NCBI GenBank assembly: GCA_937859535.1
Contig: CALLYL010000458.1
Location: forward strand, 1-49,507
From: an uncultured Myxococcales bacterium
GTDB taxonomy: Bacteria; Myxococcota_A; Polyangia; Palsa-1104; JAEUJZ01
Length of the DNA: 49,507 bases
Direction: 5' to 3'
The translations under genes were made by a program, and so were the position numbers. Below the pieces are notes generated by a model. The model was not told where the DNA came from and searched no databases. It was given only the letters and a program-made list of their open reading frames with translations. Numbering within the stretch: position 1 is the first letter of the stretch; every line of letters starts with the position of its first letter. Positions 32,537 through 43,270 of the stretch are shown one piece after another.

Positions 32537-32551
32537 CCCCCCCGCTTTCCG

Positions 32552-32822
32552 GCTTCCATTTGGAATGGAAGCCCATTCCCTGTCCGCTTTCCCGCTTCCA
32601 TCCACGATGGAACCCGTTTTCCAAGCAGAAAGGTCGTTCCATTCGCAATGGAAGCCGAGATCCTGTCCAGGATCGGGCTTCCATTCCCAATGGATCTCGA
32701 TTTCCGGTCTGGTTCCAGCCTTCCATCTGAAATGGAACCCGAATTCCGAGCGAAGCGCCCACTTCCATTCCCAATGGAACCCAGTTTCCGCCCTCCCCCT
32801 CCGATCCATTCACAATGGAAGC
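32552..32822. repeat. array of seven phased 42-bp (41-42 bp) units, each with a TTCCAT(T)-N3-(A)ATGGAA palindrome
   Basis: Palindromes lie at 32552-72, 32594-614, 32635-55, 32677-96, 32719-39, 32761-81 and 32803-22. The arms are conserved, while the central 3 nt and the roughly 21-nt inter-palindrome segments vary. Confidence 0.85.
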
Positions 32823-32837
32823 GGCTTTTTGCGCGGA

Positions 32838-32869
32838 CGCAGCCAGTTTGCGCGCTGGATTCGCGGTTT
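32838..32869. repeat. left copy of a perfect 32-bp direct repeat (CGCAGCCAGTTTGCGCGCTGGATTCGCGGTTT)
   Basis: Identical to 35064-35095. It ends 1 nt before the stop codon of the DUF4276-like gene. Confidence 0.9.
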
Positions 32870-33502
32870 CTAACCGATCTTTGGAAATCCATCCATGGAT
32901 GAAAGTGTGCTCAACGCGGCTTTCAGATCGGCCCAGAACGCCCTAAATGCCTCCAGCTCATGAAGTGCACTGAAGTCACGAATGCACTCGGCCACACGAT
33001 GCACCATGAATGCTTGTTCCTGCTTGAAACGTTTGCGGCGGCGTTGACCCAGTGTTCCGGCCGCATCCATGAGCAGCCGCTCCAGGTCCTTCTTCGGGTC
33101 GGGCAATCTCTCGATATCTCTGGTTCGTGGCAGTTCGATGGCAGTCCGACCATTGGGGTTGCCACTTGCAATCCGCAGGGCTTCCGCGTCGATCAAAAGC
33201 CACGCTTCTGTCATCCGTACCGGGATAACCGGCACAACATAGTCAACTCTTGGGACTTCCGTGCGTCTCGCTGCTAGTGGTAGCCGTTCGGCATCTCGAT
33301 GCACGAAGATCAACGCCGGTTTGTACTTGTTTCGTACATCTTCTACCGTGGCATCTACAGCGCAGCTCCCGCGATGCACAAACGGTTGGGGAGCAAAGTC
33401 TATCTGTGGAGCCAACCGTCGCAGTGACCACGATAAGATGGGCAACAGCGCACGGTCAGACGTACCGTCACCAATCAGGGCATAGTCGATAACTTGCATC
33501 AC
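32870..33502 (-). CDS. DUF4276-like protein (possible Toprim-like partner of the upstream ATPase)
   Basis: About 210 aa. YALIGDGTSDRALL, LIFVHRDAER and VIPVRMTEAWLLIDAEAL resemble my recollection of the DUF4276 consensus (..vEG.sE.., ..D.D.., ..EAWlLaD). The start overlaps the ATPase stop (GTGATG). Confidence 0.6.
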   Translation of the reverse strand: MMQVIDYALIGDGTSDRALLPILSWSLRRLAPQIDFAPQPFVHRGSCAVDATVEDVRNKYKPALIFVHRDAERLPLAARRTEVPRVDYVVPVIPVRMTEAWLLIDAEALRIASGNPNGRTAIELPRTRDIERLPDPKKDLERLLMDAAGTLGQRRRKRFKQEQAFMVHRVAECIRDFSALHELEAFRAFWADLKAALSTLSSMDGFPKIG

Positions 33503-34878
33503 TCGGCAGTTCCGATTTGGAGCGCAAGTTGTTGCCCTTTTAGGCCTTCTCCGAGCGGGGCTCCACCGAGGAAATCATAGAGGCGCTTTGGAGAGATAGC
33601 ACCATGGTCTCCACGCCACGTCCCGCTCACCGGACGAACACGAGCATGGCGTCCATCTGGTCCATCAACCGGCTCGACAAAGAGAATTTGATCCTCATCG
33701 AGCTGACGAGCGACATCGGGAGAGTGGGTATTTAGTATCACCTGGCGCAGCGGGTTATCGATGGCCACAGGCATTGATGGATCGACCGCGAAGTCACGCA
33801 GGAGCATAACCATGTCTCGTACGCGGCTTGGATGCATGCCATTTTCTGGCTCTTCCATGCACAGGACCGTACTTGACACCGGATCAAGTTGCATGGTGAC
33901 TAGCGCGAGAAACCGAAGTGTACCGTCGGATAGCGACCTTGCGCTAAGCTCTTGTGCACAACCGCCCATGCGGGCAAGCAGGACGAGCTGCTGACGTGCT
34001 TCATCTCGATCGACACGTAGAGACTTAATGTCAGGTACCAATGCAGAGAGTCGATTGGCTGCATCCTGCAGAGTCTGCCCCGGGGTTTGGTCTTCAGCCG
34101 CCAAACGCAGTAGCGTTGCGGCAATGTGCCCGCCTAGCTCATCTACACTCGAGGCCCCTCCGATCGGATCAGGAGCACGCATTGCAGAAGGTTCCAAATG
34201 AACTGCATGCCACGAAGCCATCTCGCGTCTGGCAGCAAGAACCGTTGGATACTCGGCAGCATTTGTTCCACCAACAACGGTTCTTGGTGATCGTCCGGCA
34301 GGAATGGCTCGGCCTCTGCTCCCGCCATCTTGATGAAGAGATACTACGATGGAGCCGTCAGGACGGGTCTCGGGGGAAACAAGAGGCCCAGCACGACGAG
34401 CTTTCCCCAGGACCGCTTTGCGAAACTCTGCTTCGTGTGCGAATCCAATGACTGATTTGCCATCGCTGAGCTTCAGGTTGGTGAGCTTCTCGTGTGTGAG
34501 TTCCAGGCGAGGAACGGGTACTTCGGAATAACGGAAGGCGACTTCATATCGAAGAAATCTAGCGGTCGGGTTCGCTGGTCGGCCAAAATCGTCCACGACG
34601 CTGCTCGGAACAATCATATCGGCGACAAACGACATCTCCCCCGCTGGGCCGGCTCCCCAAAAAAGATCGCGAGGACCGAAGGTTCCAAATGAGGGACTAC
34701 GCACCGCCGCAGCGGCTCTGGGTATCTCATTATCTGCCAGCAGACGGAGAAACTGTATTGCGTCGAAAACATTCGACTTCCCCACTCCGTTATGGCCCAC
34801 AAAGCACGTTAGAGGACCGAATTGCACATCGACGTCGAGCAGATTCTTGAAGCCCTTGATATGAAGCCGTAGCAGCAT
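33499..34878 (-). CDS. ABC/SMC-like AAA ATPase (AAA_15/AAA_21-like, OLD/PARIS-AriA-type N-terminus)
   Basis: MLLRLHIKGFKNLLDVDVQFGPLTCFVGHNGVGKSNVFDAIQFL is the RecF/OLD-type N-terminus, with Walker A at 34774-34797. Walker B/D-loop region LCMEEPENGMHP and H-loop VILNTHSPDV are present. Confidence 0.8.
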   Translation of the reverse strand: MLLRLHIKGFKNLLDVDVQFGPLTCFVGHNGVGKSNVFDAIQFLRLLADNEIPRAAAAVRSPSFGTFGPRDLFWGAGPAGEMSFVADMIVPSSVVDDFGRPANPTARFLRYEVAFRYSEVPVPRLELTHEKLTNLKLSDGKSVIGFAHEAEFRKAVLGKARRAGPLVSPETRPDGSIVVSLHQDGGSRGRAIPAGRSPRTVVGGTNAAEYPTVLAARREMASWHAVHLEPSAMRAPDPIGGASSVDELGGHIAATLLRLAAEDQTPGQTLQDAANRLSALVPDIKSLRVDRDEARQQLVLLARMGGCAQELSARSLSDGTLRFLALVTMQLDPVSSTVLCMEEPENGMHPSRVRDMVMLLRDFAVDPSMPVAIDNPLRQVILNTHSPDVARQLDEDQILFVEPVDGPDGRHARVRPVSGTWRGDHGAISPKRLYDFLGGAPLGEGLKGQQLALQIGTAE

Positions 34879-35063
34879 AGATTCTGACCTTACCTCGGGT
34901 TGAGGTCTTAGTAGCGGGTACCTGTATCACGAACCGAAAACAAGCTCTATCAAGTCGACGACCAACTGAGCGGCTCTGGAAGTTACTACCAGTCCGCTCA
35001 TCTGAACCTCTTTGCTGCGTCGGTTTGCCCATCCCCCGTGCAGAATCGAGCCCTGTGCGCTCC

Positions 35064-35095
35064 CGCAGCCAGTTTGCGCGCTGGATTCGCGGTTT
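35064..35095. repeat. right copy of the perfect 32-bp direct repeat
   Basis: Identical to 32838-32869. It lies 27 nt upstream of the phnW start codon. Confidence 0.9.
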
Positions 35096-36291: not shown

Positions 36292-37127
36292 CCCACAGCC
36301 CTATACGCTCCGAGTCTTCGTCGTTTGTGCCGTTACAGGCCGTGATCTTCGACTGGGCCGGGACGGTCTGCGACTTCGGCAGCCTGGCCCCGGTCCTCGC
36401 CCTACACAAGCTGTTTGCGGCACAGGGCGTCCCGATTACCGCAGCCCAGGCCCGTGGACCGATGGGGCGGGCCAAGCGGGATCACATCGCCGACATCCTC
36501 GGTCTGGCGGACGTAGCGACACGCTGGCAGCAGATCCACGGGTCGCGTCCCGGCGAGGCCGAGATCGACCGCCTGTTTGCGCAGTTTCTACCGATGCAGC
36601 TTGCCGAGCTGCGCGAGCGGACGGAGCTGATTCCCGGCGTACTGCCGATGATGGCCGAGCTGCGCAGGCGTGGGCTCAAGGTGGGTTCGACGACCGGCTA
36701 CACCGCCGAGATGATGGCCGAGCTGCGCCCCCTGGCCGCCGAGCGCGGCTATGTGCCCGACGCGGTGTGGACCGTATCCGATGTGAAAAAAGGACGCCCC
36801 GCGCCGTGGATGGCGGTGCGCTGTGCCGAGCAGCTCGGCGTGTGGCCGCTGTCCGCAATCGTCAAGGTCGGGGACACCGTGGCCGATGTCGCCGAGGGAC
36901 TCAACGCCGGAATGTGGACGGTCGCCTTCGCCCGCTGCGGCAACGAAATCGGACTCGATGAGGCCCAGCTCGCCGCCCTGCCCGCTGCCGAGCAGGAGCA
37001 GCTTGTCACCGAAGCCAGAGCCAGGCTCCGCCAAGCCGGTGCCCACTTCGTAGTCGACGGCCCCAGCGACCTAGTCGCCACCCTAGACACCCTAGAGCTA
37101 CGCCGAAGACGCGGGGATCGGCCGTAG
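36288..37127 (+). CDS. phnX: phosphonoacetaldehyde hydrolase (phosphonatase)
   Basis: AVIFDWAGTVCDFGS (HAD motif I), GSTTGY, KKGRPAPWM and GDTVADVAEGLNAGMWTV. The ATGA overlaps the phnW stop. The C-terminus ..GDRP resembles the ..GERP end I recall for PhnX. Confidence 0.88.
   Translation: MTHSPIRSESSSFVPLQAVIFDWAGTVCDFGSLAPVLALHKLFAAQGVPITAAQARGPMGRAKRDHIADILGLADVATRWQQIHGSRPGEAEIDRLFAQFLPMQLAELRERTELIPGVLPMMAELRRRGLKVGSTTGYTAEMMAELRPLAAERGYVPDAVWTVSDVKKGRPAPWMAVRCAEQLGVWPLSAIVKVGDTVADVAEGLNAGMWTVAFARCGNEIGLDEAQLAALPAAEQEQLVTEARARLRQAGAHFVVDGPSDLVATLDTLELRRRRGDRP
37105..37125. repeat. left copy of a 21-bp perfect direct repeat (GAAGACGCGGGGATCGGCCGT); native 3' end of phnX
   Basis: Identical to 40422-40442. 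It extends to 29 bp with 2 mismatches (37097-37125 vs 40414-40442). The last T is the first base of the phnX TAG stop. Confidence 0.9.
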
Positions 37128-37186
37128 CTCATGGATGACCCTTGCCGTCATCAGACGGGTATGTAAGGGTGTCGCCGAGGTGACGC

Positions 37187-37615
37187 ATGACTCGCCACTG
37201 TTGGGAACAGGCCGCACGTAGGCATGCACGGGACGCGCAGACGTTGCTCGGCGCTACGCCACCAGCCTACGAAAATGCGGACCAGCTCTACGGATACTGT
37301 GCGGACAGCGTTGTGAACATTGTTGCCGATGTCGTGAGCGAAGCCCGGGGACTGCGCTTTGCACCGACCGACAAGGTTCACATCAACGCACGATGGGCTG
37401 AGCTGGCCTCTTTCCGGCAGACTCCAAAGCTGACCGAGCATCTAAAGAACCTCCCACGAAGCAACCCGTTTTCCGACTGGCATGTCAACCAGCGCTACGC
37501 TTGTGACAACAAGATCAGCAAAGATGTCGTCGAGAAGCATAAACAGGCGGCGTCCAAGCTGCTGTCCGTGCTCGAATCGCTCCAAGTAGCTGGCATCTTG
37601 AAAAAGAGTCTGTGA
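37187..37615 (+). CDS. small alpha-helical protein, HEPN-like (tentative)
   Basis: 142 aa with GAGG upstream. WEQAARRHARDAQTLL near the N-terminus, and HVNQRYACDNKISKDVVEKHKQAASKLLSVLESL near the C-terminus, fit the classic HEPN (PF05168-type) layout (A..dL..A..LL ... RYp......a......a..i). No clear Rx4-6H motif. Confidence 0.45.
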   Translation: MTRHCWEQAARRHARDAQTLLGATPPAYENADQLYGYCADSVVNIVADVVSEARGLRFAPTDKVHINARWAELASFRQTPKLTEHLKNLPRSNPFSDWHVNQRYACDNKISKDVVEKHKQAASKLLSVLESLQVAGILKKSL

Positions 37616-37618
37616 TCT

Positions 37619-38995
37619 ATGCCCACTGCGCTTCCCACGCCCGATCCATCGCCCGTGTTGTTCGACAAGGTGCTGCCGTTAGCAGCGGCCTTCGTCTTGG
37701 AACACACGGCGGTGCTGGGTGGCCAGCCCCTGTTGGTGCGAGATGTGTATGGCTGCGTGCGGATCGCAGTGGACGACCGGGAGCAGCCGCTCTTCACGGA
37801 GTCTCTGCAAGCTACAGCGTCCCAGTTCGATCAGCTTCTGGGACGCTACAGTCCGGGCCCGGACGAAAGTGACGTGTTCCTACTGGGCTCACGACTGTTT
37901 GACCCAGAGGCGGTCTTTTCCTCCCCTGACATCTTGTCCCTTCCCGAGCAGCCAGGCGTCAGGCTCCTAGAGCGGCAGATCACCGGACAAGACTGGCTCC
38001 GCCCCCCGCTATCCGCTCCACCGCAGTCGGGGAGTCCACAGCCACGTCGAGCAACCCTGTACGGAGTGAAGGGCGGTGTGGGACGGTCGACCGCGCTGGC
38101 CATCTGGGCAAAGCATCTGGCCGAAGTGCGAGGCAAACGCGTGCTGGTGGTCGATTTGGATCTGGAATCGCCCGGGATCAGCTCGATCCTGCTGCCGCCC
38201 GGACGGAGTCCTGATTTTGGCTTGGTCGACTACCTGATTGAAGAAGGCGTCGGACAGGGTGCCGTGATTCTTCCTCATATCTGCGCATCCAGCCCGTTTG
38301 CCGAGGGTTCACGCGGAGAAATCGTGGTGGTGCCGACTCATGGGGAAGCGCCCGGCGACTACCTGGCGAAGCTCAGCCGCATCTATCAGGGCATCCCGGA
38401 TGGCCCGCCAGACTTCGCGTCGCGAATCTTCCTGGCCCTTATGAAGCTCGAAGAGCAGGTGAGGCCAGATGTGGTGCTCCTCGATAGTCGAGCAGGGCTG
38501 CACGACATCGCGGCCATGGCCATCACCCGACTGGATGCGCTGGCACTGCTGTTCGCGGTCAATACACCGCAGACCATGACGGGCTATCAGCTTCTGTTTG
38601 ACAGCTTCCGCCGTCATCCCGAGCGCCTGCTGAGCTACCGCAACAATCTACAAGCCGTCGCTGCGCTCGTTCCAGATACCAATCGTCCCGAATATATGCG
38701 CTCGCTTCAGACGCGCCTGTACGATCTGTTTTCCAGGTCTGTGTACGAGTCCGAGCCTGAGCCAGACAAAGACTCACCGACCGATGATTGGACCGCCGAG
38801 TGTCACGAGGTCTGGAACTACTCGCTTGATGACTCCGACGCTCCGCATCAGCCGATCCCGATTCGCTGGTATCGGTGGTTCCTCGACTTCGATCCCGTGA
38901 ATCAGCCGGAGGCCTTTGCGAAGGCTGAGGTTGAGGCCGCGTACGGCGACTTCACCAAAAGAGCCACGGAACTCCTGCTGGACAGAGCCGGTTAA
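37619..38995 (+). CDS. ParA/MinD-like P-loop ATPase with KGGVGR Walker A variant and unknown ~145-aa N-terminal domain
   Basis: Deviant Walker A LYGVKGGVGRSTAL (38069-38092), in which the signature Lys is kept and the P-loop Lys is Arg. Switch I-like VLVVDLDLESPG and Walker B VVLLDSRAGLHD are present. The start lies 3 nt after the upstream stop. Confidence 0.75.
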   Translation: MPTALPTPDPSPVLFDKVLPLAAAFVLEHTAVLGGQPLLVRDVYGCVRIAVDDREQPLFTESLQATASQFDQLLGRYSPGPDESDVFLLGSRLFDPEAVFSSPDILSLPEQPGVRLLERQITGQDWLRPPLSAPPQSGSPQPRRATLYGVKGGVGRSTALAIWAKHLAEVRGKRVLVVDLDLESPGISSILLPPGRSPDFGLVDYLIEEGVGQGAVILPHICASSPFAEGSRGEIVVVPTHGEAPGDYLAKLSRIYQGIPDGPPDFASRIFLALMKLEEQVRPDVVLLDSRAGLHDIAAMAITRLDALALLFAVNTPQTMTGYQLLFDSFRRHPERLLSYRNNLQAVAALVPDTNRPEYMRSLQTRLYDLFSRSVYESEPEPDKDSPTDDWTAECHEVWNYSLDDSDAPHQPIPIRWYRWFLDFDPVNQPEAFAKAEVEAAYGDFTKRATELLLDRAG

Positions 38996-38998
38996 ACC

Positions 38999-40423
38999 AT
39001 GGACTCCCGAACGTTTCGCTCGGCCTTCTTGAGCGCGATCCCCGCCCAAAACATCGGAGTGCCAGAGGCCAAGTACCTCTACATTCCGAAGACCCACCTG
39101 CGTGCGCTCCACCCGGACCATGCCCTGGTGCGGGGGATTCGCGGCGCGGGCAAGAGCGTCTGGTGGTCGGTCTTGCAGTTCGAGGACCTAAGCTGGCTCC
39201 TCAAGCAGATCTTCCCCTCCGCGATGATGCCGACGAGCATCGAGGTGAAGCCCGGCTTCGGCGAACAATTAAATCCGCAAGCATATCCGGGCCGCGACAC
39301 CTTGGAGCTGCTGCTAACGTCACATCAGCCTCGGCTGATCTGGCGAACGGTTGTGCTGTGGGGAGTTCGAGCCATTCCGGAACATCTCGAAACCTGGACG
39401 GACCGGGTAGGCTGGGTGGCGCAGAATCCAGAGCTAGCGGAACGAAACCTCAGTACGGCGCATCAGCAGATGGCCCAGAAGCAGACGCTGGGGCTGTTTG
39501 TCTTCGATGCACTCGACCGCACTGCCACAACGTGGGACAGCAGGGCCAGGCTGCTCGATGGTCTGCTGGAAAACCTGCTCGAGTTTCGGTCTTTCCGGTT
39601 CATTCGCCTCAAGGCGTTTGTTCGGCCCGACATGCTGGTGGGACCAGAGATCGGACGCTTTCCCGATGCCTCGAAAGTGCTGACGGGTGCGATTGACTTG
39701 TCTTGGCCGCGAGCACAGCTCTTTGGACTCCTGTGGCAGTACCTGCTCAATGCGCCCACTGCCGAGGGGCAGCCGGGATTTCGCGAGCTGTGCAAGCAGG
39801 TATTCCACCAACGCCTGGGGCTGCACGAGGGCGTCTGGCACGGCTCGGACGAGATGAACACGGACGAAGAGACCCAGCGGTCGATCTTCGAGGTGCTCGC
39901 CGGGGAGTTTATGGGGAGCAATCGGCTTCGTGGCTATCCCTACACCTGGTTGCCGAACCACCTGGCCGATGCCTATGGTCAGGTGAGTCCGCGCTCGTTT
40001 CTGGCCGCGCTGCGAGAAGCCGCCGAAGACACGGACCGCTGCTACCCGCAGCACCCGCAGGCCCTTCACTATGAAGCGCTCAAGCGTGGTGTCCAAAAGG
40101 CCTCGCAGATCCGCGTGGAAGAGTTCGAGGAAGACTTCCCATGGATTCGCGAGGTCATGAAGCCGCTCAAGGAATTAACGGTTCCCTGCTCGCTGACTCA
40201 GATCGACGAGCGATGGGTCAAGGCCAAGCTCAAGCAGAAACTCGGTGAGCAGCGTCAAGGCGTACTACCAGGCCGCTCCAATGATTTTTCAGCAGGTCTT
40301 ATCGAACAGCTTACGTCGGTAGGCATTTTCTCGCGCATGCCAGACCAGCGAATCAACCTGCCGGATGTCTATCGAGTGGGATTTGGCTTAAAGCGGCTCG
40401 GTGGCGTGAAGCCGCTGCGCTGA
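38999..40423 (+). CDS. uncharacterised P-loop NTPase
   Basis: Walker A GIRGAGKS (39134-39157) near the N-terminus and a Walker B-like LGLFVFDALDR. The long C-terminal region matches no family I recognise. The start lies 3 nt after the upstream stop. Confidence 0.7.
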   Translation: MDSRTFRSAFLSAIPAQNIGVPEAKYLYIPKTHLRALHPDHALVRGIRGAGKSVWWSVLQFEDLSWLLKQIFPSAMMPTSIEVKPGFGEQLNPQAYPGRDTLELLLTSHQPRLIWRTVVLWGVRAIPEHLETWTDRVGWVAQNPELAERNLSTAHQQMAQKQTLGLFVFDALDRTATTWDSRARLLDGLLENLLEFRSFRFIRLKAFVRPDMLVGPEIGRFPDASKVLTGAIDLSWPRAQLFGLLWQYLLNAPTAEGQPGFRELCKQVFHQRLGLHEGVWHGSDEMNTDEETQRSIFEVLAGEFMGSNRLRGYPYTWLPNHLADAYGQVSPRSFLAALREAAEDTDRCYPQHPQALHYEALKRGVQKASQIRVEEFEEDFPWIREVMKPLKELTVPCSLTQIDERWVKAKLKQKLGEQRQGVLPGRSNDFSAGLIEQLTSVGIFSRMPDQRINLPDVYRVGFGLKRLGGVKPLR

Positions 40424-40442
40424 AGACGCGGGGATCGGCCGT
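40422..40442. repeat. right copy of the 21-bp direct repeat (duplicated phnX 3' end)
   Basis: Identical to 37105-37125. It begins inside the TGA stop (40421-23) of the third cassette gene. Confidence 0.9.
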
Positions 40443-40469: not shown

Positions 40470-42179
40470 TTACTGTTGAATCGGTCTCCCAAAGAAGTAC
40501 AGCTGGCCAGGTCGGTAGGCTACCGATTCACGACTCTCCAGAAACTTCTGCGCACTGGCAGCCGCCATCTGGGGGTCGAAGCCTTCCGACGTTTCCCAGT
40601 CGGAGCAGTTGATACCCGTGGAAGCCTCAAACCTCTGGCGCAAGTCGACGGTAAGCTCGGGCCCATATTTGAGGTCGATGATCTCGCGGGCGAGCGCGAT
40701 CACACCAAACAGACCGCCGCGAAAGATAGGTACATCTTCCCGACCAAGCCGTTGAGACAACGCTTGATAGCAAATGGTGGTCTTCTCGCAACAGGCCTGA
40801 CACCCGATAGGTTGGTGGGGTCCATGCCGCACCGCCTGAAACGCGAACATCTGGTTTAGTCTACTTTCCAAATGAGCATACTTGGGGTTGTTGGCGTTTC
40901 GGCGGTAGGCCTCTAGTACGAGTGGGACATCGCAAAGCATGCTGCGGCGAAGGAGCCCCCAGCACAGCGAATAGGTCAGGTCGGGTGACGCCCCCCGACG
41001 GATTGTTTCTCGCCAGGGATCGAGGACGCAGTCATCTGCTGCGTCTGCGATCAGGTCAATGGCGGCACGTTGGAACATCGGCTCATTGTCCTTGCCGATC
41101 AAGGCAGACAAACCCTCTAGCGGAGTACGATTGCCCGACATCGCTGCACGAAGGCAGGTGTGCAGGGAAAGCCAGGGCCAGTCTCGATGAATCGTCAGCG
41201 CTGCTGAAGGTGGAGGCGTTGTCGACCGAACAAAGTACCCACCTCGGAACGGCTCGAAGCCGAGAGGTAGGGCGAAGTAGTCGTCCACATCGAAGATCGT
41301 GCGCACCTCAGGCACATCCATTCCTCGATTGGGTGGGTACGCCGCGAAAATCTGCGCAGCAGATCCGACATCTTCGATAAAGTGGCCCATAAAAATGTGC
41401 TGGCCGACTGGGTAGCCGTTGGCCTTCCCAGATTCATGGAAGAGCTCAAGATCCGCCCTGGCTTGGAGCAAGTTGACTTTGCCATGGGTGAACCACTTGC
41501 TGCATGACAGTCCCGTGGTCACCTCGAATTTGTGGCGATCGTCTGGATCCAACAAGCCCTTGCGAAGATCCTTCAGCATCGCCGTCACGAGGGATCCAAG
41601 CGCAAATGCGCGGCCACGGTAGACATGGATCAGATTGGTTCCGAGTTCGTTCCATAGACGGAAGTAGCGCTCCGCAACCGCCGTCCGATACTCTTCCCAT
41701 TGCTCCTCTGGAGGCGCGGATAAGGACTCCTCGGCAGGCTTGGTAAGAAGCCAGTCCAGCATCATAGGAATGCTGTCGGAGTCGGTGTGTCTCCGGTTCA
41801 TCTCATAGAACCGGAACAACACCGGAACATCCGCCAGTCGCCCTCTCGCAGCCAACGCGGTGACGATATCTAGACCGCGATCGAATGAGGTACTCTTCTG
41901 AAGAGTAAGAACCAGGGCTTCAAGATCGGCTGCGGTTCCGGCGTCTGCCACCACGCTACAAGCGACGCCGTGAAGTTCAGTATCGCGAGTTTGCCCGATG
42001 AGTTCCCTCACTACCTGGCTCACCAGCCCAAATGCTCCGTGGCGTGCTTGCGTGATGGTGGCCCTTAGTAGGCCCCATTCGTCACGGGGAGCAGGGTGGC
42101 GTGCAGCCTGTTGTAAGTCCTCGGCAGGGAATGCGTCGTAGCCTGCGCCGTACCAGTCAAACGAACGTTCATCATCCAT
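40470..42179 (-). CDS. internally duplicated hypothetical protein; candidate immunity protein for the adjacent DUF4150 toxin
   Basis: It lies 5 nt downstream of the toxin gene on the same strand. The two halves are homologous (YRGRAFALGSLVTAMLKDLRKGLLDPDDRHKFEVTTGLSCSKWFT vs FRGGLFGVIALAREIIDLKYGPELTVDLRQRFEASTGINCSDWET). Confidence 0.55.
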   Translation of the reverse strand: MDDERSFDWYGAGYDAFPAEDLQQAARHPAPRDEWGLLRATITQARHGAFGLVSQVVRELIGQTRDTELHGVACSVVADAGTAADLEALVLTLQKSTSFDRGLDIVTALAARGRLADVPVLFRFYEMNRRHTDSDSIPMMLDWLLTKPAEESLSAPPEEQWEEYRTAVAERYFRLWNELGTNLIHVYRGRAFALGSLVTAMLKDLRKGLLDPDDRHKFEVTTGLSCSKWFTHGKVNLLQARADLELFHESGKANGYPVGQHIFMGHFIEDVGSAAQIFAAYPPNRGMDVPEVRTIFDVDDYFALPLGFEPFRGGYFVRSTTPPPSAALTIHRDWPWLSLHTCLRAAMSGNRTPLEGLSALIGKDNEPMFQRAAIDLIADAADDCVLDPWRETIRRGASPDLTYSLCWGLLRRSMLCDVPLVLEAYRRNANNPKYAHLESRLNQMFAFQAVRHGPHQPIGCQACCEKTTICYQALSQRLGREDVPIFRGGLFGVIALAREIIDLKYGPELTVDLRQRFEASTGINCSDWETSEGFDPQMAAASAQKFLESRESVAYRPGQLYFFGRPIQQ

Positions 42180-42184
42180 CGGAC

Positions 42185-43270
42185 TTATCCCAACTTCTGG
42201 AAGTCAGTAAATTCGGCTTCCAGTTTCTTACAGGCTGGACACAATTTCTTGTCGAGGGTCAAGTTCCCCTGACCCGTAGGGCATCCACCGGCACTTTTGG
42301 GGGTGAGGTGGTTCACTTGATCATCCTCTTCCATCTCTCTCAGAGGCGGAATACGGTCTGCACTGGCTTTTTGTTGCTGCGCTTTCCTGTAGTTTCGCCA
42401 TTTGCTATCGATGCTTTTATGCTGCTTCTGACGCTCGTCACCCTTGGACGGTTGTTTATGGTAGACATCGCAAGGAGGACTAGGGGCAACCGGAGGGCAA
42501 CCACAGCTTTTGGCAGCTACTGCTTTGCGGCTTAACTCTTTGTACTCTCTCAGCTTTTTGTCACGCCAGGCGTTCTGTTCAGCGAGTTCGGCTTCTTTTT
42601 TAGCAAGCTTGAATCCGGCGGCAGTGATTGCATCAGCGTCCCCACCCTTCAGCGCGTTCGCCAGCGCCTGCTTGTTCGCGTCGATGCCCTTCTGAATGCC
42701 TTGGCTTCTGCGCGCAGACTCCTCTTGGATATTGTCCTCATACCACTCATCACGATGCATATCTGCGCCATCGGAATGCTGAGGGCCGTTGCAGCAGGCG
42801 CACTTCTTGTCTGCGATGGCTTGGGTGGCAGCAGCCTGCATTTCAGCATTGGGGAAAGGTGGCGTGCTGCCCGGATAGCTGGCGTGATTGCTGGTGGTGA
42901 GGTCGAGATGCCGGCAGACATTCTTGCCCTCGACCATCACGTCCATCGAGTGGGCCGCAAAGTAGGTCTTGCCCGAGATGGTATGGGTGATCACTGCGCC
43001 ACCAAAGTTGCGGGTCGCCGCTTCATTTCCCAAGGGAGAGGACTGATAAAAGCTCTGTCCCTTGAGAGCGAGCGGCTTGACGCCAATCTTCACGGTCGTG
43101 CTTCCGTCCTGTAGATCCTTGGCAAACGACGTGTTGGGATACGGCACTGGCACGGGCCCGGCGGGCGGCGGCGGTGGGCTCAGACACACATCGGGAAACG
43201 CGGCCAGCACTTTGCCATCGCCCGCCTTGTGGGCGATCTCCATGTTGTTAGCGAACACGTTTTTGCCCAT
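42185..43270 (-). CDS. DUF4150 (PAAR-like) T6SS effector with HNH/EndoVII-like C-terminal toxin motif
   Basis: The N-terminal MGKNVFANNMEIAHKAGDGKVLAAFPDVCLSPPPPPAGPVPVPYPN...MVEGKNVCRHLDLTTSNH is typical DUF4150. The C-terminal VNHLTPKSAGGCPTGQGNLTLDKKLCPACKK fits the HNH pattern (H...GG....NL..L C..C). AGGAG lies upstream. Confidence 0.7.
   Translation of the reverse strand: MGKNVFANNMEIAHKAGDGKVLAAFPDVCLSPPPPPAGPVPVPYPNTSFAKDLQDGSTTVKIGVKPLALKGQSFYQSSPLGNEAATRNFGGAVITHTISGKTYFAAHSMDVMVEGKNVCRHLDLTTSNHASYPGSTPPFPNAEMQAAATQAIADKKCACCNGPQHSDGADMHRDEWYEDNIQEESARRSQGIQKGIDANKQALANALKGGDADAITAAGFKLAKKEAELAEQNAWRDKKLREYKELSRKAVAAKSCGCPPVAPSPPCDVYHKQPSKGDERQKQHKSIDSKWRNYRKAQQQKASADRIPPLREMEEDDQVNHLTPKSAGGCPTGQGNLTLDKKLCPACKKLEAEFTDFQKLG

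Follow-up and report, generated by a model that had tools for sequence, protein, structure and literature searches.

The 49,507-nucleotide contig CALLYL010000458.1 of an uncultured Myxococcales bacterium (GenBank assembly GCA_937859535.1), which is referred to here over its whole length as the window, carries three adjacent genes at positions 37187-40423. An initial annotation, made from the letters of the DNA, had put them forward as an undescribed system consisting of a HEPN-like protein and two P-loop nucleoside triphosphatases (NTPases). All three proteins match the models of the catalogued computational candidate PDC-M28 over their full length, and therefore the trio is no undescribed system. 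Judged by sequence, it is a further, somewhat divergent copy of this candidate. We propose that the trio is an abortive-infection module complete in itself, with a HEPN ribonuclease (RNase) that would be gated by two nucleotide switches, and we assign to this reading a rough probability of 0.55. The cassette is most likely a horizontally mobile, autonomous three-gene conflict module. The present analysis adds to the catalogue entry the structural and functional anatomy of the candidate, residues for mutation and tractable homologues. The features of the locus are the following:

37187-37615, plus strand: gene 1 (PDC-M28A), 142 amino acids, predicted HEPN-fold protein of the AbiV/AF0298 type
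37619-38995, plus strand: gene 2 (PDC-M28B), 458 amino acids, KGGVGR-variant NTPase of the ParA/MinD class (SIMIBI)
38999-40423, plus strand: gene 3 (PDC-M28C), 474 amino acids, predicted ORC/Cdc6-like (AAA_16/STAND-related) AAA+ ATPase
37177-37180, plus strand: Shine-Dalgarno sequence GAGG of gene 1, 6 nucleotides 5′ of the ATG (sequence reading)
37097-37125, unstranded: direct repeat, left copy, 29 nucleotides, overlapping the 3′ end of a phnX-like gene (repeat search)
40414-40442, unstranded: direct repeat, right copy, 29 nucleotides, covering the final codons of gene 3 together with its stop (repeat search)
38069-38089, plus strand: deviant Walker A motif KGGVGRS of gene 2, residues 151-157, with K151 and R156
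39134-39157, plus strand: Walker A motif GIRGAGKS of gene 3, residues 46-53
39494-39520, plus strand: Walker B region LFVFDALDR of gene 3, residues 166-174 (VFDALDR, 168-174)

The identity of the trio is evident from the PDC-M28A, B and C models of PADLOC-DB v2. Gene 1 matches PDC-M28A (PDLC04558) with an E-value of 1.9e-26 over residues 6-137 of 142, gene 2 matches PDC-M28B (PDLC04559) with 5.7e-127 over residues 13-453 of 458, and gene 3 matches PDC-M28C (PDLC04561) with 2.2e-164 over residues 4-473 of 474. The genes are adjacent, lie on the same strand and follow the order A>>B>>C. The earlier statement that the trio could not be matched to any named defence system is thus superseded. PDC-M28 corresponds to the cassette CAS_00115, FAM_01482>>FAM_02546>>FAM_01036 (supplementary file 8; Payne et al. 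2024, bioRxiv 10.1101/2024.01.29.577857), of which 121 instances were found in RefSeq v209. The label "assigned as candidate" was given on the ground that copies lie inside known defence systems, a principle called "guilt by embedding" by its authors (bioRxiv 10.1101/2024.01.29.577857). Text searches of the literature for PDC-M28, KGGVGR and Sll1717 returned nothing relevant.

The list of open reading frames (ORFs) and the reading of the junctions agree that the three same-strand genes are separated by only 3 nucleotides each, as had been annotated. The junctions read TGA-tct-ATG between genes 1 and 2 and TAA-acc-ATG between genes 2 and 3. All three genes are in one frame, and each junction consists of a stop followed by a single sense codon (TGA-TCT, TAA-ACC); readthrough of the stop codons would yield a fused polyprotein. 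Of the ribosome-binding sites initially ascribed to every gene, that of gene 1 is confirmed by the GAGG sequence, while genes 2 and 3 are preceded by weak purine-rich runs only (AAGAG and ACAGAG). For this reason, coupling by termination and reinitiation is likelier for these two genes than translation from independent strong ribosome-binding sites. A search of the plus strand in the 59-nucleotide gap between the phnX-like gene and gene 1 gave no sigma-70-like promoter, and no intrinsic terminator was found 3′ of gene 3. The cassette is repeat-bounded as described earlier: the two copies of the 29-nucleotide direct repeat are 93% identical with a 19-nucleotide exact core, and the left copy reaches the stop codon of the phnX-like gene (37125-37127). 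The lower G+C content claimed for the cassette holds in comparison with the adjacent phnW/phnX-like genes (0.60-0.61 versus 0.67-0.68), but the value is near the average of the window.

The three genes are co-conserved, and the lack of co-conservation that the initial annotation had named as a refutation is not observed. A genome scan with gene 2 resulted in 27 loci in which the gene order is kept, and defence-type contexts are seen among them. The loci belong to Bacteroidota (Flavobacteriaceae), Planctomycetota, Acidobacteriota, Desulfobacterota, Fibrobacterota, Magnetococcus, Methylococcales, Chromatiales and Burkholderiales. Gene 3 directly follows gene 2 in 25/27 loci; the two exceptions are a locus at a contig end (L025) and one with a 1.2-kb gap (L027). 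A homologue of gene 1 is located 5′ of gene 2 in all 27 loci (21 by tblastn and 6 by ORF inspection), about 20 of these copies being full length and about 7 shortened or frameshifted. Most of the junctions overlap by 1-8 nucleotides, and most loci use 4-nucleotide overlaps of the ATGA type, unlike the 3-nucleotide spacers of the window. Natural fusions of genes 2 and 3 also exist (P0266, 935 amino acids; P0303, 929 amino acids). No conserved fourth gene was found among the related loci; the genes flanking the Methylococcales copies, which were considered as candidates and rejected, are NUDIX, mnmA and purB. PDC-M28 is widespread: an exhaustive HMMER search for gene 3 returned 968 cluster representatives (50% identity), which come from plasmids and from many phyla, and the trio is present on 23 plasmid records.

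Two unusual copies were observed in the course of this comparison. In the 1328-residue protein P0291, a gene 3 homologue is joined to a C-terminal calcineurin-like metallophosphoesterase (motifs recognised by eye) and a NACHT-like P-loop NTPase, an architecture that might hint at alternative effectors. On the chromosome of Roseateles sp. MS654 (L027, 8001-11485), the gene 2 homologue appears to be cut short after about residue 270 and is followed by about 1.2 kb before gene 3; this copy of the trio may have been disrupted or may carry an insertion.

Pfam searches with the three window proteins alone were uninformative for genes 1 and 3, and family-wide scans and structure prediction were therefore used. 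The gene 1 protein of the window itself matches no Pfam HEPN model. Its family was built from the orthologues located 5′ of gene 2 homologues and then widened to 661 relatives with the alignment of these locus-derived sequences, compared with 4 relatives obtained by a word-indexed search. When members were scanned singly against Pfam, HEPN_AbiV (PF18728) was matched by 9/20 (best E-value 2.7e-5) and HEPN (PF05168) by 6/20. The AlphaFold2 model of gene 1 is a helical bundle (predicted local distance difference test score, pLDDT, 91.6; predicted template modelling score, pTM, 0.88). In a Foldseek search of the PDB, HEPN domains account for nine of its ten top matches, with template modelling (TM) scores of 0.44-0.65 and probabilities of 0.75-1.0. 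The HEPN matches comprise AF0298 (2hsb, the top match), 4nqf, the HepT toxins 7ae6, 7ae8, 7bxo and 5yep, ST0689 (1wol) and sacsin (3o10). The sequence profile of gene 1 gave only chance-level matches to PDB sequences. On account of the family-level Pfam matches and the fold search, the HEPN-like character proposed in the initial annotation can be upheld, and the model supports a four-helix up-down HEPN fold of the AbiV/AF0298 type.

The residues R12, H13, D16, G36, G55, H65, W98, R103 and Y104 are invariant in an alignment of 89 gene 1 sequences. R103 is part of the motif DWxVx(Q/H)RY. H65 is situated at the end of the loop 54-65 between helices 2 and 3, just before the helix 66-76. The acidic position 40 of helix 2 is a nearly invariant glutamate in the family and an aspartate (D40) in the window protein. 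For the AbiV and AF0298 families of HEPN proteins it has been reported that the arginine of the catalytic motif is kept and the histidine is absent (Anantharaman et al. 2013, PMC3710099). An alternative active site, consisting of the conserved histidine of the insert between helices 2 and 3 and the acidic residue of helix 2, was proposed for them (PMC3710099). The pattern of R103, H65 and E/D40 fits this description in terms of sequence positions, not of distances, and RNase catalysis through an alternative-histidine site is plausible for gene 1. The AbiV protein of Lactococcus has been shown experimentally to be a metal-independent RNase that cleaves rRNA (bioRxiv 10.1101/2024.05.05.592566). 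Its Rx4-6H motif (R91/H97) is functional, an antitoxin RNA controls the protein, and the authors state that the motif is not conserved across the whole AbiV family (bioRxiv 10.1101/2024.05.05.592566).

The product of gene 2 consists of an N-terminal domain of about 140 residues, an NTPase domain (residues 142-330) and a conserved C-terminal extension. The NTPase domain matches the NCBIfam model NF047398 (KGGVGR-motif variant AAA ATPase) with 176 bits at a cutoff of 90, and the KGGVGRS variant of a ParA/MinD Walker A motif recognised by the initial annotation is conserved. The scores against the ParA, MinD, BcsQ and NifH models of Pfam and NCBIfam are all under the curated cutoffs; among the sub-cutoff scores are 24.0 versus 25.4 for CbiA and 16.4 versus 180 for ParA_partition. 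A profile of 61 gene 2 sequences matches Soj, Mrp/NBP35, ParA, ArsA, MinD and BcsQ in the PDB around the Walker A motif only, and its KGGvGrsT is aligned with KGGVGKTT of Thermus Soj. The signature lysine K151 is present in 119/119 homologues. The catalytic P-loop lysine is not kept, its position being occupied by arginine (R156) in 117/119 and by cysteine in 2/119. Invariant as well are D179, D181, E183 and D289, the latter in the motif DSRAG. Because of the exchange of the P-loop lysine for arginine, and in view of how P-loop NTPases behave in general, gene 2 is read as a latch and not a motor: it should retain nucleotide binding and dimerisation and should hydrolyse poorly. Some gene 2 homologues bear the label "CheY-like" in data of the Joint Genome Institute (JGI), which is regarded as a lead only. 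No ParB, centromere-like repeats, MinE or pilus, flagellar or cellulose operon is present in the window or at the related loci, in agreement with the earlier remark that partners explaining a ParA-like ATPase are missing.

Gene 3 is a second P-loop NTPase, as previously annotated, and its GIRGAGKS and VFDALDR motifs are conserved. G49, G51 and K52 of Walker A and D170 of Walker B are invariant in 108 sequences, and F169, L172 and D173 of Walker B are nearly so. Highly conserved are also an RxKxFxRPD segment and the C-terminal tail PDVYRVG(F/Y)GLxRxGGVKP. The AlphaFold2 model, for which 107 representatives served as the alignment, has a pLDDT of 94.8 and a pTM of 0.93. Its best Foldseek matches in the PDB are the archaeal proteins Cdc6 (1fnn, E-value 3.3e-5) and ORC2 (1w5s/1w5t), with E-values of 3e-5 to 9e-5 over about 485-500 columns, followed by the BrxC protein of the bacteriophage exclusion (BREX) system (9zdx_C, 4.3e-4) and further AAA+ proteins, among them p97 and TnsC. 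The TM scores are only 0.31-0.46, which is probably caused by differing domain orientations. The full-length alignment to Cdc6/ORC2 is the reason to assume a C-terminal helical/winged-helix region, and we infer that gene 3 encodes an ORC/Cdc6-type AAA+ protein with base, lid and a putative C-terminal winged helix. The approximately 300 residues that were initially described as unknown sequence would thus belong to this protein type, and gene 3 probably binds DNA. Scanned by member against Pfam, the family matches AAA_16 in 12/23 cases (best E-value 1.3e-5) and NACHT in 11/23; the gene 3 protein of the window scores 19.2 bits against NACHT at a cutoff of 26.7. The sequence profile of gene 3 has no significant match among PDB sequences, the hits being at chance level, and a viral fold library returned generic AAA+ matches only. 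Membership of the NCBIfam family NF047389 (Sll1717 family) was considered and rejected, as the score is 47.7 bits versus a cutoff of 75 and covers residues 161-446 only. By sequence, this family appears to be a distant relative.

The genomic contexts of the related loci connect the trio with known defence systems. It lies between PglX and PglY/BrxC in the loci L012, L014, L018 and L023 and on the plasmid pTs417, with BrxC located 3′ of the trio in the four loci. The order in L018 is PglW-PglX-[trio]-BrxC/PglY, and L012 goes on to PglZ. A PglX-type gene or fragment is found 5′ of the trio in L014 and L015; in L015 it is a pglX-like 3′ end, and this copy of the trio is probably also inside a BREX type 2 system. 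On the Thiodictyon plasmid pTs417 the RefSeq annotation reads pglW...pglX...[hypothetical/AAA family ATPase/KAP family NTPase]...'phage resistance protein' (PglY)-pglZ-brxD. A type III restriction-modification pair is located immediately 5′ of the trio in L009. When 98 flanking ORFs were compared with PADLOC at E<=1e-10, the BREX matches were BrxC (4), PglX (3) and PglZ (2), and the others SoFic/PDC-S24 (3), MADS3-like (3), PDC-M25A (2) and HEC-01A (2). Four further matches to DolB/PDC-M37B, in L003-L006, were discounted as defence genes; they are most likely a ClpA/B-like chaperone of about 760 residues encoded 5′ of the trio, as indicated by Pfam for the L004 copy. On the conjugative IncF plasmid NZ_CP063442.1 of Enterobacter asburiae (77019-82683, L044), the trio has a tyrosine recombinase gene on one side and a TIR-domain gene on the other and is annotated as hypothetical protein, P-loop NTPase and hypothetical protein. 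The Enterobacter plasmid homologues are convenient for experiments.

The initial annotation had placed the cassette in an island with an ATPase/nuclease-like pair and a toxin of the type VI secretion system (T6SS). Both are present, as an HEC-01A/B pair, 2.3 kb from the trio, and a Tox-PAAR-like protein:

32870-33502 and 33499-34878, minus strand: HEC-01A/B pair, ABC ATPase and DUF4276-like protein (PADLOC, Pfam)
32830-32869 and 35056-35095: 40-nucleotide direct repeat flanking HEC-01 (repeat search)
42185-43270: Tox-PAAR-like protein, preceded by a 340-residue ORF and a DUF2169 gene
40470-42179, minus strand: 569-residue protein, directly 3′ of the Tox-PAAR-like gene

On the 99.6%-identical contig WBZP01000292.1 (GCA_009612975.1, L034), precisely the HEC-01 cassette is missing and a single copy of the repeat remains. 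This is a clear-cut insertion/empty-site polymorphism, and the defence cassette concerned has no recombinase gene. The pair of occupied and empty sites demonstrates that this neighbourhood takes up defence cassettes with flanking direct repeats; the trio bears the same signature. An empty site for the trio itself was not found; all contigs with the 569-residue neighbour protein, about 20 metagenome contigs, also carry the adjoining trio. The 569-residue protein has no match in Pfam, NCBIfam or PADLOC and is probably the cognate immunity protein of the T6SS toxin. No BREX-type gene is located within 7 kb on either side of the trio in the window, where the neighbours are the phnW/X-like genes, HEC-01 and the PAAR toxin module. 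Beside the insertion point of HEC-01, the region 32548-32822 contains at least 5 copies of a 21-nucleotide palindrome (core TTCCATT-N3-AATGGAA) at a spacing of about 42 or 83 nucleotides. This array could be an element resembling repetitive extragenic palindromes (REP) or a protein-binding array.

Upon the observed fold and family assignments, gene order and coupling, fusions of genes 2 and 3, embedding in BREX type 2 and other defence loci and insertion signature, we propose the following course of events, in which the RNase activity, the sensing protein and the trigger are conjectural. Gene 3, through its winged-helix region and basic C-terminal tail, would be an ATP-dependent sensor or switch for invader DNA, protein or a DNA-protein complex. 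Gene 2, which keeps the signature lysine of dimer formation and the Mg/Walker B aspartates, would form a dimeric latch with bound nucleotide and slow or no hydrolysis; it would connect gene 3 with gene 1 and hold the latter inactive. The HEPN dimer of gene 1 would be the effector and, once released or activated, would cleave RNA (rRNA or tRNA) and abort the infection. Apart from HEPN and the two NTPases, the three proteins match no enzyme family (Pfam, NCBIfam), so that HEPN is the sole candidate effector. It is tentatively conceivable that in this module a hydrolysis-poor ParA/MinD-class dimer links a DNA-sensing AAA+ switch to an AbiV-type HEPN RNase with a non-canonical site of arginine and upstream histidine, and that the whole acts as an autonomous anti-phage system with a new signalling logic; in this specific form the proposal is possible rather than probable.

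Several points weigh against the abortive-infection reading. PDC-M28 is one of 145 PDC candidates that its authors call untested (bioRxiv 10.1101/2024.01.29.577857). Many copies of the trio are located outside defence islands, for example between NUDIX-mnmA and purB in four Methylococcales genomes, and the copy in L024 follows the housekeeping gene fusA. The Foldseek E-values of gene 1 are modest (0.03-0.5, none <=1e-3), and the N-terminal domain of gene 2, about 140 residues long, has no PDB or Pfam match. The role of gene 1 as a HEPN effector, suggested in the initial annotation, is made plausible by R103, H65 and the acidic position of the alternative site, but the canonical Rx4-6H motif is missing: the alignments contain no conserved histidine 5-7 residues past the invariant R103. 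In addition, the near-invariant segment AECxLK (about 90% of the gene 1 family), which contains the acidic residue of helix 2, a cysteine and a lysine, is replaced by ADSVVN in the window clade (window 37304-37318, gene 1 residues 40-44; the same in the closest relatives P0121-P0124). This clade may be a functionally shifted subclade. Because of the missing motif and the replaced segment, gene 1 could be non-catalytic.

Among the alternative explanations, a toxin-antitoxin or addiction module would have the HEPN protein of gene 1 as toxin, gene 2 as antitoxin acting by nucleotide-dependent conformational control or phosphorylation, and gene 3 as regulator, and its main role would be the stabilisation of mobile DNA or defence islands instead of phage sensing. 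A HEPN and ParA/Soj dyad has been predicted to function in this way, the ATPase being the antitoxin (Anantharaman et al. 2013, PMC3710099), although that dyad uses another HEPN family (MAE_18760) with the canonical Rx4-6H motif. The tight coupling of the genes, the toxin-first order and the occurrence on plasmids, including the conjugative IncF plasmid where the trio is next to a recombinase, speak for such a module; the third and larger AAA+ gene, which is always present and sometimes fused to gene 2, exceeds the needs of a pair. The roles in addiction and in abortive infection can also coexist, and as the main explanation we give this one little weight. A defence system in which the HEPN protein is a non-catalytic adaptor or sensor and the ATPases execute, for instance with gene 3 positioned by gene 2 so as to block replication of the invader or recruit host nucleases, would account for the absence of the canonical catalytic motif from gene 1 and for the DNA-binding initiators and BrxC among the fold neighbours of gene 3. 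The positioning of partner proteins on DNA is typical of the ParA class and would suit such an arrangement. The trio encodes no nuclease or other executor, there is no conserved fourth gene, and the invariance of R103 and H65 together with the acidic residue is most simply explained by catalysis. Non-catalytic HEPN domains have been discussed for some families (PMC3710099), but for the trio we consider this explanation unlikely.

The positions between pglX and pglY/brxC in L012, L014, L018, L023 and pTs417 and next to the pglX-like fragment in L015 could also mean that the trio serves BREX type 2 (Pgl) as an accessory or a regulator and has no autonomy. The ORC/Cdc6-like fold is common to gene 3 and BrxC, and BREX loci with embedded backup effectors, including standalone HEPN proteins, have been described (PMC12839542). 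Most of the 27 loci, however, have no detected BrxC or PglX neighbour (BrxC in 4; PglX in 3 plus L014 and L015), and the window has no such gene in the flanks inspected. Cassettes embedded in BREX are commonly independent, which is the partly validated premise of Payne et al. (bioRxiv 10.1101/2024.01.29.577857), and dependence of the trio on BREX is quite improbable. The least likely rival is a housekeeping or DNA partition function of a ParA-like ATPase with a DNA-binding partner, for which we see hardly any chance. The ParA/MinD class of gene 2, the probable DNA binding of gene 3 and the presence on plasmids would suit it, but the P-loop lysine of gene 2 is exchanged for arginine, one partner is a HEPN protein, and neither ParB nor MinE nor centromere-like repeats are nearby. 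The distribution is also patchy, the insertion sites differ among genomes, and copies are embedded in BREX type 2. The abortive-infection module with a gated HEPN RNase is thus our preferred reading. If the trio is proven to be a defence system, ParA-class proteins will join the immune regulators, and gene 1 will provide a test case for the "alternative histidine" HEPN active site proposed in 2013.

The closest known counterpart of the window trio is PDC-M28 itself. Its three proteins, their order and their common strand are the same, and copies inside BREX loci are found among the relatives, as when the candidate was first discovered. There is no structural difference; the window copy is somewhat divergent, as is evident from the E-value of gene 1 (1.9e-26) and from ADSVVN versus AECxLK. 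With AbiV and AF0298, gene 1 shares the small dimer-type HEPN fold, 2hsb being the top match and HEPN_AbiV the commonest Pfam match in its family, and the same pattern of a kept arginine, an absent motif histidine and an alternative upstream histidine (PMC3710099). It differs from the lactococcal AbiV in that the latter has R91/H97 and an antitoxin RNA, whereas the partners of gene 1 are two NTPases. The HEPN and ParA/Soj dyad of Anantharaman et al. 2013 (PMC3710099) is similar in that a HEPN gene adjoins a gene of a ParA/Soj-class ATPase. That dyad, however, consists of two genes with an MAE_18760 HEPN carrying Rx4-6H and with various fusions, and it has no ORC/Cdc6-like ATPase. MinD/ParA-like domains predicted to be inactive have been described as attached to STAND/AP-ATPases and to ternary conflict systems of the vWA-MoxR type (Kaur et al. 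2020, PMC7159879). They are a thematic precedent, likened by description, for a degenerate ParA/MinD domain paired or fused with a STAND/ORC-type NTPase, but those domains belong to large multidomain proteins that are found in multicellular bacteria and involve other effectors. Finally, the predicted AAA+ base, lid and winged-helix architecture of gene 3 resembles that of BrxC/PglY and the archaeal Orc1/Cdc6 proteins. In contrast to BrxC with its approximately 1200 residues, gene 3 encodes 474 and has a conserved C-terminal tail of its own.

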